Below, piece by piece: positions 28,065 to 34,558 of a stretch of DNA of 64,000 nucleotides. The notes beneath the pieces are model-generated. The model did no database searches. It was not told the DNA's origin and saw only the letters and a program-made list of their open reading frames with translations. The position numbers and the translations under genes are program-made. The first letter of the stretch is position 1. Every line of letters begins with the position of its first letter. The DNA is from Nitrospirota bacterium (GTDB lineage: Bacteria > Nitrospirota > Thermodesulfovibrionia > Thermodesulfovibrionales > Dissulfurispiraceae), in the NCBI GenBank assembly GCA_963790025.1, contig CAWBMP010000004.1:1280001-1344000 (forward strand). Direction: 5' to 3'.

Positions 28065-28823
28065 ATGAAGGGATCCATAAAACGAAAAATATATAAGAAC
28101 AGTGGAAATTCTTTTGAGGAATTTGATGATTCCATTGCTACTGAAAAAAGACTAATAGTTTCAGTCAACGGCAAAGAGGTGCTCAGTTTTTACTGCACTC
28201 CCATTATGGTAAGGGAGCTGGTTGTCGGCATGTTTATGACCGAGGACATCATTAAGGGCGGGTGGTGCGCCGAGCGGATGGAGATACACTACGGCAAAGA
28301 GGTGCTTGTCGATATCCCTGCCGAGGGAGAGGCTTCAACAGACGGGGCTGTGATAACTTCAGGCTGCATCGGCGGCATTACTTTTCCAAAACGCCTGAAA
28401 CTGCAGAAAATCCATGATTCTTTCAATATACGCGCTGAAAGAATAAAAGCCCTGTTCAGGAAATTTCAGAACGCTTCGGAGCTTTACAAGCTAACCGGCT
28501 GTGTCCACAGTGCAGCCCTCAGCAATGGGAGCGAAATATTCTGCCTTGCCGAAGACATAGGAAGACATAATGCCGTAGATAAAGTTATCGGGTACGCAAT
28601 CCTGGAGCAAATTCCCTTCAAAGACACAATTATGCTTGCCAGCGGAAGGCTCTCCTCTGAGATTGTGTCCAAGTGCGCACGGTGGGGCATCCCTATTGTT
28701 GCGAGCCGGACCTCACCCACAAGCCTCGCCGTCGACATCGCGGAGGAAAGTGGCGTAACAGTCGTAGGTTTTGTCAGGGCCGACCGGTTGAATGTTTACA
28801 CCAATCCTCAAAGGATAAAATAG
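28065..28823 (+). CDS. fdhD: Formate dehydrogenase accessory sulfurtransferase
   Basis: TSGC, TGCVHSAAL, EDIGRHNAVDK, SGRLSSEIV; start 28065 preferred because the upstream codons derive from a hexamer repeat. Confidence 0.9.
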   Translation: MKGSIKRKIYKNSGNSFEEFDDSIATEKRLIVSVNGKEVLSFYCTPIMVRELVVGMFMTEDIIKGGWCAERMEIHYGKEVLVDIPAEGEASTDGAVITSGCIGGITFPKRLKLQKIHDSFNIRAERIKALFRKFQNASELYKLTGCVHSAALSNGSEIFCLAEDIGRHNAVDKVIGYAILEQIPFKDTIMLASGRLSSEIVSKCARWGIPIVASRTSPTSLAVDIAEESGVTVVGFVRADRLNVYTNPQRIK

Positions 28824-29126
28824 AAAAAAAGAGCATGGCATTTGCTCGTCCAAAGTCTGATAAAACACCTGCATTTGTTACGCATTTACCTGGATAACCT
28901 GCTCGATTCTTGCGAACAACCTCATGCAGTTTTCCGATAAGAACAGTGAAAATTGCGATGAGGGTTGTATCCCAAAACTTGCTGTTCTTAAGAAATCTGC
29001 CCTCTTTAAGGTTGCACCAAGAAGTTGTTACTCGCACCCGCTCCTCTCAGGCTCCACGTTACTTCTTAAAGTAGAGAGTTTCAGTATCGCTATACTGCTA
29101 TGCATGGGAACGGGGTCAGTGAGAAC

Positions 29127-29147
29127 GGGGTCAGGTCTATAATGTTT
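29127..29147 (+). repeat. REP-like inverted repeat, left copy flanking RAYT
   Basis: GGGGTCAGGTCTATAATGTTT, exact reverse complement of 30039-30059; partial extra copy AACGGGGTCAG at 29109. Confidence 0.85.
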
Positions 29148-30003
29148 ACCTTTTTGCATGACCTCGAACAACCCGGCTTATATATGTAAAATGCAAATTG
29201 AGATGATTTGCGATTGCCCGCTGAGTATATCCAAATTCGTAGACAGCAGTAATTATTTTGCTGTCCCTCTGACTTTTATCCATTAATATGTTTTTGCTGA
29301 ATATGCTATCCAACCCGGGTCTGTTGACATACCGTTGCGTTTTGGATATTTCGGCAATATTCTTATGTTTATTGAGATGATGATTCAGGCTATCAACGAA
29401 TTCTTCTTTTCCGAGGACTACCTGGCCCTTAACAGCATTCCAAATACTTTCTTGTTCGATGCCTGATTTCACAAACTCACTGTATTTTCTTTCTGCCTCA
29501 CTCCTTTCCTCGCTGAATTGCCCTAGTATCCAGTCAGTGGTAAGACACGGATGAGGCGTTTTCTTTCCTGCGGTTTCCCCGCAGCTGGACCATTTCCAAT
29601 CTTCAGGCTGTTCAACTATGTGCGCACGTACCGGATTCAGCACAACATATCGGCACACTTCAAGAAGATGACTGTCTTTCTGGATCACAATAGCCTTATA
29701 TCTACCTTGCAACAGATGACCTGATCGGTTGCGCTTTTTGTTGTAAGCCTGGCTGTAGACACTGTTTAATTGCCTCATCCCTATGGACAGATTTCCATCC
29801 GGCGTTTCAATCATCAAATGATAATGGTTATCCATCAGACAGTAGGCATGGCATAGCCAATTGTACCGTCTATTGATATCGACAAGAATCCCAAGGAATG
29901 TTTCACGGTCAGCGTCATCCCTGAAAATTGACTTCTTCTCGTTTCCACGAGAAGTAACATGATATACAGCGCCAGGATATTGTATGCGCAACGGTCGAGC
30001 CAT
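29146..30003 (-). CDS. REP-associated tyrosine transposase (RAYT, Y1 HUH) with C-terminal HTH
   Basis: MARPLRI..PGAVYHVTSRGN, CLMDNHYHL (HUH), RYVVLNPVRA, WKWSS; start ATG 30003. Confidence 0.9.
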   Translation of the reverse strand: MARPLRIQYPGAVYHVTSRGNEKKSIFRDDADRETFLGILVDINRRYNWLCHAYCLMDNHYHLMIETPDGNLSIGMRQLNSVYSQAYNKKRNRSGHLLQGRYKAIVIQKDSHLLEVCRYVVLNPVRAHIVEQPEDWKWSSCGETAGKKTPHPCLTTDWILGQFSEERSEAERKYSEFVKSGIEQESIWNAVKGQVVLGKEEFVDSLNHHLNKHKNIAEISKTQRYVNRPGLDSIFSKNILMDKSQRDSKIITAVYEFGYTQRAIANHLNLHFTYISRVVRGHAKR

Positions 30004-30038
30004 AACAGCCAATTTATCAGATTCATCATGAACATGTA

Positions 30039-30059
30039 AAACATTATAGACCTGACCCC
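30039..30059 (-). repeat. REP-like inverted repeat, right copy flanking RAYT
   Basis: AAACATTATAGACCTGACCCC. Confidence 0.85.
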
Positions 30060-30181
30060 ATTTCCACATTTCCACATACCAATATTCTTGCCTTTTCTTT
30101 CAATTTATTGGTATGTGTCCCTATTTTTTTAGGGCTAACGAGTTTTTAATAAAACTTACCCACGACAAACAAACTGCAAAA

Positions 30182-31165
30182 CTAGGCAAATAGTAGTACG
30201 AATTGTTCAAACAGCTCCCTATGAAAGTGATTGATCATTTCCTCTCTCATGACCGTTAGTGCCTCAAAAGGAGTGAGTTTCGGTTTGTAGGATCGCTCAG
30301 CAGTCAATGCGTCATACACATCCGCAATACAGCAGAGTCTGCCATATACATGGATTTGATCGCCTTTGAGTCTGCGGGGGTACCCATTGCCGTCCTCCCT
30401 CTCGTGGTGCTGCATCTCGATAATCTTACACTCCTCCGTTAATTGGCCTGCCTCGGAAAGGATCTTGTAGCCCTGATACGGATGTGTTCTCATTTTCTGT
30501 ATCTCTTCTTTTGTAAGTCTTCCTGGCTTGTTGATTATCCCTGGATCAACACGGACTTTGCCGATATCGTGCAGGAAAAAGCCCGCTCCCAGTTCATGCA
30601 TATCATGAGCATCGGAATCTTTAAACAGTACCTTTGAAAGCATAATCGATAAAACTCCGACGTTTACCGAATGGGTGTACGTATAAAAATCATGAGATGT
30701 GATCCTCAATAAATAGTTCGCCGTAGCATCGTCCGAAATGAGAAGGTCCACGATTTCAGCAATTTCCTCTTTTGCTATTCGAATGTTTTCGGCCTTGGGG
30801 TCCGACAGCAGCTTGCCCATAAGTTCAACGGTCGACTTATATACCACTCTTGCTTTTTTCTCCGGAGCAAGTGTCCTGCTGTGAATGGCGTCTCTTAATT
30901 CATCCGAAACCAGTTTCTCAGTCTCCCACTTTTGAGGAGGCGCCAAATCCTCGTCTCCATGGCTCATTGATCCAAAATCTTCAAACGGCATTCCCTTGGA
31001 GCTATTTATATTCACCTCATCAAACCCGCCATCGATGATTTTTGCTATTTCAGAATGGTGTTTAATTGTAAATTCGTTTTTCAGGAAGGGATGATCAAGC
31101 CACGAAACAGGCAAGACGACGTGCATACCGACCTTCAACTCTTTTACCTTTATCCTCTGGATCAT
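30182..31165 (-). CDS. HD-GYP c-di-GMP phosphodiesterase with DUF3391-like N-terminus
   Basis: YTYTHSVNV, LHDIGK, HHEREDGNGYP, IADVYDALT. Confidence 0.9.
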   Translation of the reverse strand: MIQRIKVKELKVGMHVVLPVSWLDHPFLKNEFTIKHHSEIAKIIDGGFDEVNINSSKGMPFEDFGSMSHGDEDLAPPQKWETEKLVSDELRDAIHSRTLAPEKKARVVYKSTVELMGKLLSDPKAENIRIAKEEIAEIVDLLISDDATANYLLRITSHDFYTYTHSVNVGVLSIMLSKVLFKDSDAHDMHELGAGFFLHDIGKVRVDPGIINKPGRLTKEEIQKMRTHPYQGYKILSEAGQLTEECKIIEMQHHEREDGNGYPRRLKGDQIHVYGRLCCIADVYDALTAERSYKPKLTPFEALTVMREEMINHFHRELFEQFVLLFA

Positions 31166-31263
31166 ACAGCTATTTTAAACTATACCAGCATAAATTAAAA
31201 AAAGTTCTGATTTGTCCCGATTCGTTTTTGTCTGAGAGAAAAAGTAGGGTCTACCATAGGATT

Positions 31264-31460
31264 TATGCAGATGACTATGGCAGCTTTATTCATGTAAGAT
31301 ATGCTTAACGGGGGTGTGGCTTGTGGGGTCAGTGGCCTGTTCATTCAGGCTCACTTGAGTCTGAAATGCCGCCTCCGTCATCTGCATCATCCTCAAAAGG
31401 GTCGACCGGGATGGTGCCAAATGTGGCTCTGTAAGTAGACGAGACCTGAGGATGATAATC
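31264..31460 (+). ncRNA. IS110 bridge RNA (target-binding and donor-binding loops)
   Basis: Two stem/internal-loop/hairpin modules: 31308-31378 with guides GTGGGGTC and GAGTCTGA; 31386-31456 with guides CGGGATG and GTAGAC; these match the flank and end sequences. Confidence 0.8.
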
Positions 31461-31480
31461 TTGTCTGCAAAGGAGACTAC

Positions 31481-32680
31481 ATGAAAAAAGATGATCCCCT
31501 CGAACTGCGTGTAAGCGTCGATATTGGCTGCCGCAGTCACAACGTTGCAATCGGCCTATCCAGCGGTGAAGTCCTCGATGAATTCTCAATCGTGCATGAA
31601 CCTGAAGGGTTCCGGCAATTCTTCTGTCGCATCGAGAAGCAGGAGCAAAGGTTTAGTTGTCCCGTTGCCGTAGCAATGGAGGGCTTCAACGGCTACGCAC
31701 GTCCGCTGGACACGCTCGTTCGGGCCCGCAATTATCGCCTCTTCAATATCAACAATCTCAAGCTTGCTCGATTCAAGGAGATATTCCCCGGTGCCGCGAA
31801 GACCGATGCAATCGACGCAAGGAAAGGACTGGAGCTTTTTCAGCTTCGAGATCATCTGCCGATAGCCAAGGATGTGCTGCAGGAGGTACGCAAAACGCCG
31901 CGGGACAACGACATTCTAAAGCGGCTATCACGGCGCCGACGTCGTTTGGTCGATGAGCGAGTACGGGTAGTAAACAACCTACAGGCCGATCTTCACGCTG
32001 TATGTCCGGGACTTCTGGAGATTACCGGTGAGGCCGACAATATGTGGTTTCTTGGATTTCTGACCAGCACGGATGACCTTCGCACGCTTGCACGCATGCG
32101 GGAAACAACTATCCGCAAGATCCCGGGCATTGGTAAGAAATATGCCTCTGTTATTGTTGAATGGCAGAAAACAGCACAGTTTAGTCACGACGTCGAGTGG
32201 GTCGGTGAAATGATCCAGGAAGATGCAATCCGCGTGATGGAACTCCATGCCAAGATAAAATCACTTGAAGCAAAGATGGAGGGTGTTGCACACGGCTCGG
32301 ATATTGCGCAAACGCTCGCAACCATTCCAGGATTCGGTTCCATTTGTACATCTGAACTCGCCGGAGAGATTGGAACTATCGAGCGCTTTGGCAGCGAAGC
32401 AAGTCTGGCTCTGTATATTGGGATGGCGAATCTTGACAATAGTTCAGGCAAGCAAAAAGGATCAAAACCACCAACGCAGGTTAATACTCGGGCTAAGGCC
32501 GCAATGATGGTTGCCGTAGATCGGCACCGAAAACAAGTTCCGCAGTCTCAACAATATTATGAGAAAAAAAGAGCTGAAGGCAAGAAACATAACCAGGCAC
32601 TACGTGCGCTTGGTCGTCATCTTTGCCGTGTTATTTTCAAGATGCTGAAGGAGAACAGAGGGTACATCTTATCTAAATAA
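31481..32680 (+). CDS. IS110 family DEDD recombinase/transposase
   Basis: RuvC-like DEDD (SVDIG, AMEG, KTDAID), IPGFG, catalytic Ser in DNSSGK; AAGGAG SD. Confidence 0.95.
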   Translation: MKKDDPLELRVSVDIGCRSHNVAIGLSSGEVLDEFSIVHEPEGFRQFFCRIEKQEQRFSCPVAVAMEGFNGYARPLDTLVRARNYRLFNINNLKLARFKEIFPGAAKTDAIDARKGLELFQLRDHLPIAKDVLQEVRKTPRDNDILKRLSRRRRRLVDERVRVVNNLQADLHAVCPGLLEITGEADNMWFLGFLTSTDDLRTLARMRETTIRKIPGIGKKYASVIVEWQKTAQFSHDVEWVGEMIQEDAIRVMELHAKIKSLEAKMEGVAHGSDIAQTLATIPGFGSICTSELAGEIGTIERFGSEASLALYIGMANLDNSSGKQKGSKPPTQVNTRAKAAMMVAVDRHRKQVPQSQQYYEKKRAEGKKHNQALRALGRHLCRVIFKMLKENRGYILSK

Positions 32681-32831
32681 GAAAAAATATATTGAAAATT
32701 CCAGCGGGATGTTCAGGCTTGATTATATGCATTTGCGGTCCATGTGTCCATGACTATTTTCATTTATAATCCGCACCATGCTTGGAAAGTCCGATGTGTT
32801 TGTTTTTGTACGTAAAAGCGACACAAAAACC

Positions 32832-33500
32832 TTACGATTCCATCGGCAATATATTTGATTCAGAGTCAAACTTCGGGGAATTCACCGTGTTCGACACCTT
32901 ATACATTTCCATCTCTTCTGAGGGATACGGTCTTAAAATCTCCTTCAATGCCTTATAATCCTGACATGCTGGATCGAGCCATATATCCACGTCCTCTGGA
33001 GGCACGATCACCGGCATACGGTTATGAATGGACGACACTAAATCGTTAGATTCGGTTGTTATTATCGCGCAGCCGCAAATTTTATCCCCGTCAAAAGAAG
33101 ACCAATAATTATAGATTCCAGCAAAACCAAAAGGCTTTCCAGATTTTAACCTTATATAAAATGGAGTCTTCTTCTGTCTCTCCCTCTTCCACTCGTAAAA
33201 ACCATCCGCTATTACCAGGCATCTTTGCTTTTTGAATGCCTCTTTGAAACTTGGCTTTTCATCTATTGTCTCGGCTCTGGCGTTGATCATGGGGCTGCCT
33301 TCGGAAAGATCTTTTATCCATGGGGGCAAGAATCCCCATCGACACCTTATCAGTTCCCTCTTGCCTAAATTGTTTACGATGATAATTTCTTGAGAAGGGG
33401 ATACATTATAGCTCGCGGAAAGGTCGAAAGAAGGAGACTCGATATGGAATATCTCGACGACAGACGTTATCGGAGCAATCCTGACAAAGCGGCCACACAT
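32832..33500 (-). CDS. SOS response-associated peptidase (SRAP/YedK/HMCES)
   Basis: N-terminal MCGRF, INARAET, DGFYEW, IHNRMPV. Confidence 0.95.
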   Translation of the reverse strand: MCGRFVRIAPITSVVEIFHIESPSFDLSASYNVSPSQEIIIVNNLGKRELIRCRWGFLPPWIKDLSEGSPMINARAETIDEKPSFKEAFKKQRCLVIADGFYEWKRERQKKTPFYIRLKSGKPFGFAGIYNYWSSFDGDKICGCAIITTESNDLVSSIHNRMPVIVPPEDVDIWLDPACQDYKALKEILRPYPSEEMEMYKVSNTVNSPKFDSESNILPMES

Positions 33501-33710: not shown

Positions 33711-33854
33711 ATGACAATTGCATGGGAGAAGTTGGAAAGCGAGACACGGGGCGTGGCAGACATATACCGGACTAAGGTTCCCGGCGGCTGGTTAGTGACG
33801 GCCCATGGTGGCGGGATAATGTTTGTACCTGATCCCAACCACAAATGGAAATAA
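33711..33854 (+). CDS. 47-aa small protein (not in ORF track)
   Basis: AAAGGAGA SD; MTIAWEKL...RTKVPGGWLV...IMFVPDPNHKWK; TAATG overlap with resolvase start. Confidence 0.75.
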   Translation: MTIAWEKLESETRGVADIYRTKVPGGWLVTAHGGGIMFVPDPNHKWK

Positions 33855-34558
33855 TGAGAACAGCTATTTACGCCCGAGTATCAACAGTCGATAAGGGCCA
33901 GGATCCGGAAATCCAGCTTCGGCCGCTCAGAGAATACTGCCAAGCTAGAAGCATGGAGATCGCTGGCGAGTATGTGGATCACATGACCGGCAGCAAGGAC
34001 CGGAGGCCTGAACTGGACAAATTAATGGATGCAGCTCGCAAGCGCCAGATCGATTGCATTATAGTTTGGAAGCTGGACAGGTTCGGCAGATCTCTTAAGC
34101 ATCTGGTAACTTCCATTGATGAGCTGAACAGCCTAGGCGTCGCTTTTATCAGCTATCAGGAAAACATCGATCTCTCCACGGCAGCCGGTAAACTCATGTT
34201 ACACATCATCGGCGCCATGGCCGAATTTGAGCGCGAGCTGATAGGGGAAAGAGTGAAAGCCGGAATTGTGAACAGCCGTGCGAAAGGTAAGGCGCATGGA
34301 AGGAAGTCTTTAGCGCCTGTTGATATCAGAAGGGTGATCGAGGCCTTCGAACAGGAGCCCACTGCTTCAGTTCGTAAGCTGGCTAAGCTAACTAATGTCC
34401 CTAAGTCATCAGTGGGCCGTATATTGACAGACTTTAAGGCAGGGCTCCTGGACCAGGATGGTCTGCGTTATGCAGCCCCTCTTTTGCCTGTCCCAAAAAC
34501 CACCTCAGATTCCGGGGGGCAAGATGACCAAAAGACGCCACTTTTGCCGGTCGTATGA
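33854..34558 (+). CDS. Serine recombinase (resolvase/invertase family) with C-terminal HTH
   Basis: AIYARVST, KLDRFGRS, MAEFERELI; start 33854 coupled to the upstream ORF. Confidence 0.95.
   Translation: MRTAIYARVSTVDKGQDPEIQLRPLREYCQARSMEIAGEYVDHMTGSKDRRPELDKLMDAARKRQIDCIIVWKLDRFGRSLKHLVTSIDELNSLGVAFISYQENIDLSTAAGKLMLHIIGAMAEFERELIGERVKAGIVNSRAKGKAHGRKSLAPVDIRRVIEAFEQEPTASVRKLAKLTNVPKSSVGRILTDFKAGLLDQDGLRYAAPLLPVPKTTSDSGGQDDQKTPLLPVV

Follow-up and report, generated by a model that had tools for sequence, protein, structure and literature searches.

What directs an insertion sequence to its place is the question raised by a 64,000-nucleotide stretch of a Nitrospirota bacterium genome (assembly GCA_963790025.1, contig CAWBMP010000004.1, positions 1,280,001 to 1,344,000), called the window below and corresponding to C4:1280001-1344000 in the genome studied here (G000; 3.45 Mb in 5 contigs). 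Positions 29109-32725 of the window hold three genes: one for a Y1 transposase (minus strand), an unrelated HD_5/DUF3391 gene (30182-31165, also minus strand) and, on the plus strand, the transposase gene of an IS110-family insertion sequence (IS). A sequence-only reading had proposed that the bridge RNA of this IS, in parallel to IS621 and the repetitive extragenic palindromes (REPs) that it targets, is programmed against the repeats of the neighbouring Y1 element, which is of the REP-associated tyrosine transposase (RAYT) type. The parallel itself stood, as the target loop matches the GGGGTCAG-type repeat of RAYT-like ends, but the repeat in question was found to be that of a second RAYT-like family (family B) and not that of the neighbour (family A). 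The best explanation as a whole, to which we assign a probability of roughly 85%, is that of a six-copy bridge-RNA IS110 element programmed for the ends of family-B elements.

Six copies of the IS, 99.4-100% identical, were detected in the genome by blastn. The copy in the window is preceded by AGTAGGGTC (31243-31251) and begins with TACCATAGG from 31252, while its right end, GGGATGTTC (32706-32714), is followed by AGGCTTGA from 32715. All six copies share the left junction ..GGGTC^TACCATAGG.. (..GGGTC^TACCAT..) and the right junction ..GGGATGTTC^AG(G/A)CTT.. (..ATGTTC^AG(G/A)CTT..). The dinucleotide TC is the sole sequence common to both junctions in all six, being located at 31250-31251 and 32713-32714 in the window, and it is present once in the unoccupied genomic sites, GGGGTCAGGCTTGC, as well as in GGGGTCAGG sites, which identifies TC as the core and 31252-32714 as the IS. 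Excision of 31252-32714 with a TC core rebuilds AGTAGGGTCAGGCTTGA, that is AGTAGGGTC^AGGCTTGA, exactly as the sequence-only reading had stated. The lack of terminal inverted repeats and the short core, shared by the two junctions and single in the empty site, agree with membership of the IS110 family. The features of the element and its borders are as follows.

31250 to 31251, plus strand: TC core at the left junction, with which the left target AGTAGGGTC (31243-31251) ends.
31252 to 32714, plus strand: IS110-family insertion sequence, 1463 bp with the TC core counted once, from blastn and junction comparison.
31481 to 32680, plus strand: IS110 transposase gene, 399 aa, from Pfam and NCBIfam scores, preceded by 229 nt of non-coding DNA.
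32715 to 32734, plus strand: AGGCTTGATTATATGCATTT, the right half of the target split by the insertion; it is a solo family-B repeat that has diverged, and it aligns with the other five right flanks and with unoccupied family-B ends.

The transposase contains an N-terminal DEDD (RuvC-like) domain (PF01548, 75 bits against a cut-off of 29) and a C-terminal Tnp domain (PF02371, 61.3 against 21.3), as expected of the family, and scores 164.6 against NCBIfam NF033542 (cut-off 140). Residues D14, E67, D109, D112 and S322, which we take to be the catalytic residues of an IS110 transposase, are invariant in 13 relatives. A clade profile of the protein matched the IS621 transposase 8wt6 (E = 1.4e-6) over the C-terminal domain alone; a single-sequence query against the PDB gave no match, so that the profile was required. 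Two of the six copies, at C4:1511258-1512743 and C5:250323-251808, are 1 nt shorter and match the transposase over residues 1-225 only; judged from their sequence, they are probably frameshifted and inactive. As to RNA-dependent recombination through a circular intermediate, a further mark of the family, the contigs of four public runs break at the ends of the IS and show no joints, and so are silent either way on excision or circles. By eye, TTGAAA + 17 nt + TACCAT (32692-32714 with 31252-31257) would form a sigma-70-like promoter upon circularisation of the IS.

The DNA ahead of the transposase gene is predicted to encode a two-loop bridge RNA. Scanning of one genome per species gave 71 loci of transposase relatives (27-91% identity), the leaders of which align well, and in 51 relatives covariation supports two modules of stem, internal loop and stem in the 5' leader at 31307-31454, consistent with the non-coding RNA carried by IS110 elements in the left end. 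Support for the fold was obtained with RNAalifold and by counting pairs on a hand-written structure in an alignment of the relatives' leaders (alignment A1). In the five-helix fold, 98.1% of 1569 cells are paired, compared with 37-49% after sliding of the 3' partners by 1-3 columns, and 16 of the 31 pairs carry changes on both sides. Six such pairs lie in each of helices 1 and 2 (target module), with three in helix 4 and one in helix 5 of the donor module, and the 104 cells with changes on both sides compare with 24.2 in shuffles, the observed value being reached by none of 500. A single-sequence minimum-free-energy fold, in which the two guides paired together, was rejected for the covariation-supported structure. 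The modules and the guides read from their loops are listed below.

31307 to 31379, plus strand: target-binding module of the bridge RNA, with outer stem, internal loop and inner hairpin (helices 1-2 of alignment A1).
31322 to 31330, plus strand: left target guide, UGUGGGGUC, the same as the top strand of the left target plus core.
31358 to 31364, plus strand: right target guide, AGUCUGA, 7 nt, complementary to TCAGACT; a G at position 5 gives a U.G wobble.
31388 to 31454, plus strand: donor-binding module of the bridge RNA (helices 3-5 of alignment A1).
31407 to 31415, plus strand: left donor guide, CGGGAUGGU, which corresponds to the right IS end, CGGGATGTTC, as read from the sequence.
31435 to 31439, plus strand: right donor guide, GUAGA, the complement of TC+TAC at the left IS end.

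By analogy with IS621, we infer that this RNA would be transcribed and would guide recombination. Encoded about 150 nt ahead of the transposase gene, it would recognise the element's own ends through the donor loop (GUAGA with TC+TAC, and CGGGAUGGU as CGGGATGTTC), while in the target loop the left guide UGUGGGGUC and the 7-nt right guide AGUCUGA would specify 5'-(T)GGGGTC^AG(A/G)CT-3', with strand exchange at the TC core. In this genome, the specified sequence is the terminal inverted repeat of the multicopy family-B Y1 element together with its solo and decayed remnants, and the family-A ends, which share TGGGGTCAGG, are near-cognate and empty. A candidate promoter of the bridge RNA, TGACTA + 17 nt + TAAGAT, was noted by eye inside the left end (31272-31300), with a start at about 31308; a consensus promoter scan of the leader listed none, the internal TGACTA/TAAGAT candidate included.

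The guide assignments follow the IS621 rules as given in an excerpt of PMC11208160, in which the bottom strand is bound by the left guide (which so reads as the top strand) and the top strand by the right guide, with the core included in both. In the donor loop, the right guide assignment is confirmed by the relatives, as all five with a left end of TATCAT (L013, L014, L019, L046 and L057) have AUAGA. Over 7 contiguous bases the left donor guide agrees with the right IS end; guide and right end are both conserved in relatives, except that the third-last base of the right end varies while the guide is constant. In the target loop, the leader DNA reads TGTGGGGTC at 31322-31330 and ...GTCTGA within 31358-31364. 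The window site carries an A opposite a guide G and thus needs an rG.dT wobble, while TGGGGTC on the minus strand at 30060-30054, the right-hand repeat of the neighbouring RAYT-like element, fits the left guide, both points having been noticed correctly in the sequence-only reading. The distal three positions of the left target guide covary with the flank: 52 of 114 positions match, where shuffles give 40.4, and 5 of 5000 shuffles reach the observed value.

The length of the right guide separates the candidate targets from one another. Expected and observed right targets were compared at 38 sites with both flanks (32 of relatives and 6 own copies), with L015, L026, L042 and L055 left out as their flanks were cut off or misparsed. 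Over right-target positions 5-8, 81 of 152 guide-site positions match, compared with 61.3 in shuffled pairings, and none of 5000 shuffles of these rows, which are related elements, reaches the observed value. By position, the covariation is seen at 4, 5 and 7, less strongly at 6, and not at 8-12, a pattern that does not change with one site per distinct guide (22 rows), so that the right guide comprises the core and five further bases. The 4-nt right guide assumed in the sequence-only reading is thereby replaced by AGUCUGA, with 7 nt. The donor and target loops thus match the element's own ends and its target flanks, as in other IS110 elements, with covariation at the left target, right target and right donor guides. 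The perfect right target, TCAGACT, is found exactly at the site of copy 5 and at that of L001, a 91%-identical relative, and the right targets in the own genome are TCAGGCT in five cases and TCAGACT in one.

The two families of RAYT-like elements that carry candidate targets are described next, beginning with the neighbour of the IS.

29127 to 30059, minus strand: neighbouring RAYT-like element of family A, with inverted terminal repeats GGGGTCAGGTCTATAATGTTT at 29127 (plus strand) and 30059 (minus strand).

As the sequence-only reading had pointed out, the rebuilt IS site is similar to the GGGGTCAGGTCT repeats on either side of the RAYT-like gene at 29127-30059, with GGGGTCAGGTCTATAATG at 29127-29144 on the plus strand, its reverse complement at 30042-30059, and the Y1_Tnp gene in between. 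This Y1 'IS200-like' transposase gene occupies an open reading frame at 29146-30075 on the minus strand and likely starts at the ATG at 30003 (CDS 29146-30003); the protein scores 46 bits against PF01797 and 91.2 against NF047646 (cut-off 80). Family A comprises three copies at 99% identity and one fragment, with seven ends in total, which read GGGGTC^AGGTCT. The family-B protein (306 aa) is 42% identical to that of family A over 221 residues and scores 59.1 against PF01797 and 77 bits against NF047646, just below the cut-off of 80, so that both families carry a Y1 (HUH) transposase of RAYT type, with family B just under the NF047646 cut-off. Inverted repeats bracket the gene in family A (29127 and 30059) and in the family-B copies alike. 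Family B consists of three intact copies, one interrupted, one internally deleted and several fragments, the end at the gene start being GGGGTCAGGCTTGCATACGTGCATTTAAG and the opposite end GGGGTCAGGCTTGCGTTCATGCATTTAGC. One family-B element, at C4:1209016-1211461, contains an interruption of about 1.45 kb, unrelated in sequence and possibly a further insertion sequence. The 5' ends of the two families are identical on the left (AATGGGGTC), and TGGGGTCAGG is common to both families, the difference lying at right-target positions 6-7.

The repeats of both families differ from classical REPs. REPs are abundant extragenic palindromes with more than 100 copies per genome (from an excerpt of PMC2817692), whereas about 21 B-type and 7 A-type repeats (about 28) were found here, mostly as element ends, with hairpins of at most 4 bp and with fold z-scores of about 0 for family A. 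RAYTs are typically single copy per genome and domesticated, according to an excerpt of PMC5581495, while family A has three copies and family B three intact copies besides broken ones, and this multicopy state is IS-like behaviour.

All six insertions lie in GGGGTC^AG(G/A)CTT, 6 bp inside a family-B-type terminal repeat or its solo remnant. Copies 2 and 6 occupy family-B 3' ends, copy 3 a family-B 5' end and copy 4 a solo B-type repeat, while copies 1 (window) and 5 occupy diverged solo repeats. The unoccupied GGGGTCAGGCTTGC sites are the two ends of family-B elements. The resemblance noticed in the sequence-only reading exceeds chance, as all six copies have the same half-sites and GGGGTCAGG occurs 47 times in the genome against 20.1 expected. 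Among 95 GGGGTCAG sites, read or rebuilt, all five that are occupied fall in the class GGGGTCAG(G/A)CTT, which has 20 members (hypergeometric P = 2.7e-4), so that bases beyond a 4-nt guide matter. The left outer flank of copy 2 (C4:206499-208240) is of the family-B 5' type (GGAAACAATGGGGTC) and its right flank is the last 267 bp of a family-B element, and this chimeric site suggests a rearrangement between copies. Short tandem partial duplications were also observed just outside RAYT-like ends and IS110 left flanks (for example GAACGGGGTCAG twice, ATTTCCAC twice, GGAAACAAT twice, with a second GGGGTC 8-15 nt upstream), namely in the window at 29108-29134 and 30060-30075, at C5:55797 and C5:56781, and at L016, L017, L021, L032, L034 and L106.

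With the guide length and the sites at hand, the original proposal that the bridge RNA is programmed for the neighbouring family-A repeats, with 29127 and 30059 as true and still-empty targets, can be weighed, and we regard it as improbable. From the left guide through the core to two or three bases beyond it (TGGGGTCAGG), the family-A ends fit as well as the family-B 5' ends do, and a right guide of 4 nt, the length given for IS621 in the excerpt of PMC11208160, would make the family-A ends perfect targets. Three relatives (L021, L034 and L052) do occupy TCAGGTCT sites, yet with a right guide different from that of the window IS. Against it, the right guide of the clade covaries out to position 7, and the family-A ends (TCAGGTC) form four Watson-Crick pairs with two wobbles and one A x C mismatch, whereas the family-B ends (TCAGGCT) form six Watson-Crick pairs and one U.G wobble; the extra wobble and the mismatch of family A fall at right-target positions 6-7. 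Occupancy points the same way, with none of the 7 family-A ends and 6 of the 21 B-type sites being occupied. The positions 29127 and 30059 are therefore vacant, as had been claimed, but near-cognate and not cognate, and from their sequence we infer that family-A ends would be poorly used or unused.

Several observations weigh against targeting of family-B ends by the bridge RNA as we describe it. The vacancy of the seven family-A ends is by itself not significant (P = 0.18), which leaves 29127 and 30059 as possible low-efficiency targets, and right-target position 7 is mismatched in 12 of the 38 natural sites, so that one mismatch need not block use; on these two grounds the ends of the neighbour are kept as possible, near-cognate sites. 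The shuffle counts overstate independence, as the covariation rows are related elements. In the donor loop, the second core base is unmatched by the left donor guide in the alignment used, and an Rfam scan of 28500-33500 at E <= 1 returned no matching family. The role given to the bridge RNA is a prediction from the genome sequence. When every genomic TC was ranked by an additive guide-match score (wobble = 0.5, contiguity ignored), about 100 unrelated sites ranked with the family-B ends and none of them was occupied, so that the guides as scored do not fully explain the choice of site.

The contiguity of pairing or a further feature of RAYT-type ends, either of which could account for this excess of empty sites, would add to site choice. 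A gate of the latter kind, such as a hairpin, transient single-strandedness or processing by the Y1 transposase, would complement the family-B explanation without replacing it, and we hold it as a tentative addition that is rather unlikely on present evidence. In its favour, about 100 non-repeat sites tie the family-B ends by match count, yet all insertions are in B-type repeats; moreover, the family-B ends contain a TGCA-N4-TGCA hairpin 7 nt beyond the core, and a sequence-plus-structure target rule with a target stem-loop is described in an excerpt of the ISPpu10 preprint. The match score is crude, however, in the handling of wobbles and contiguity, the hairpin is only 4 bp long with modest fold z-scores (-1.9 to -2.9 for family B and about 0 for the solo repeat at C3:268478), and the diverged sites of copies 1 and 5 are without it.

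That the resemblance between the IS site and the RAYT repeats is a coincidence, with no preference of the IS for such repeats, can be given almost no credence. The shortness of the shared motif is the only point in its favour, and it is contradicted by the presence of all six copies in one repeat family. The relatives contradict it as well: their hosts include Nitrospirota, Thermodesulfovibrionales, Syntrophaceae, Binatia, 'delta proteobacteria', Gallionella, Nitrospira, Verrucomicrobiia, Acidobacteriota and others, and 29 of their 39 sites end in GGGGTC, with 23 of the 39 going on with AGG. In 8 of the 71 related loci a Y1 gene is found no more than 1.2 kb from the IS, several relatives are placed directly on the ends of RAYT-like genes, and in L003 a RAYT-like open reading frame begins 40 nt past the end of the IS.

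The programming of the window IS for family-B ends may thus be one instance of a wider habit. RAYT-like genes are present in all five genomes examined that carry relatives of the IS, and in 6 of the 30 RAYT-like loci from these genomes the gene is bracketed by an inverted GGGTC(A/G)G(G/A) pair, a GGGTCGGACC variant being among these pairs. Some RAYT-like genes of other genomes (L100, L104 and L105) are bracketed by GGGTCGGACC-type repeats in place of GGGGTCAGG, and the IS110 relative L009 occupies a GGGTCGGACC-type site, having a right end of ..ATGATC and a G as the first base after the core. Within the order, RAYT-like genes are found in 181 of 301 genomes, making co-occurrence uninformative there, and close relatives of the IS (87-88% amino acid identity) occur, besides the present genome, only in G291 and G161 among the 301. 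The DNA of the IS was not found in the four other genomes of the same genus that were searched. Specialisation of the clade on RAYT-type ends is, from these sequence comparisons, supported and unproven. A stronger form, for which we would give somewhat less than even odds, is that this IS110 clade is, across many phyla, an obligate parasite of RAYT-like transposons, with a fixed GGGGTC left guide and a 7-nt right guide that drifts after the local end variant (AGGCT, AGGTC, AGATC, GGACC and others). Conservation of the left guide across phyla is accounted for by that of its target, the GGGGTC terminus of RAYT-like elements. If the clade is an obligate parasite, an insertion 6 bp inside a terminus would cripple that end, or the IS would travel within the RAYT element.

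IS621 and its natural target in a RAYT-linked repeat were reportedly described by Choi et al. in 2003. The present element resembles IS621, as described in the excerpt of PMC11208160, in its DEDD and Tnp transposase, in the two-loop bridge RNA of the left end, in a 2-nt core at both junctions and in a natural target within a RAYT-linked repeat. It differs in the core (TC here, CT in IS621), in the right guide (7 nt against 4 nt), in a protein that is only distantly related, as the profile match to the C-terminal domain and the failed single-sequence query indicate, and in the target, which is an abundant REP in IS621 but here is the end repeat of multicopy RAYT-like elements, numbering about 28. 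ISPpu9 and ISPpu10 of Pseudomonas putida are IS110 elements of which all copies lie in one conserved repeated intergenic sequence or REP (excerpts of PMC8450116 and of the ISPpu10 preprint), and a target stem-loop is shown there to be required by ISPpu10, while for the window IS such a requirement is a possibility only. They differ from the present case in host phylum and in target sequence. IS4321 and IS5075, said to have been described by Partridge and Hall in 2003, reportedly belong to the IS110 superfamily and are specialised in inserting into another transposon's terminal repeat. The likeness to them lies in this specialisation; they are IS1111-type elements that target DDE (Tn3-family) transposons, whereas the window IS is of IS110 type, with a left end that is long and a right end of 34 nt, and its targets are Y1 (HUH) RAYT-like elements.

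The insertion of IS110 elements into REPs (IS621, ISPpu9 and ISPpu10) or into the terminal repeats of other transposons (IS4321 and IS5075) is therefore already on record, and what is new here is the host lineage, the target class (multicopy RAYT-like termini), the TC core and the 7-nt right guide. No report of this association between an IS110 element and RAYT ends was found in the literature searched, although the supplementary target tables of PMC11208160, which stand apart from the excerpt, may list the motif, and only unrelated papers were among those listed for the motif GGGGTCAGG. The locus offers a natural, multi-copy and internally consistent case of bridge-RNA targeting outside Proteobacteria, with guides that can be read from genome data alone and, across the clade, a right guide longer than that of IS621, and it would illustrate the parasitism of one transposon on another as a route to safe landing sites. 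Its practical value is modest, consisting of more natural guide and target pairs for the engineering of bridge recombinases and a marker for annotating RAYT-like ends.

On the left side of the IS, the end of the element lies 86 nt upstream of the start codon of the HD_5/DUF3391 gene (31165, minus strand; interval 31166-31251), a position which suggests that the insertion may have cut or replaced the promoter region of that gene. Downstream of the IS, a SRAP-family gene (32832-33500) and a serine resolvase gene (33845-34558) are located, possibly within a mobile or variable segment of larger extent.

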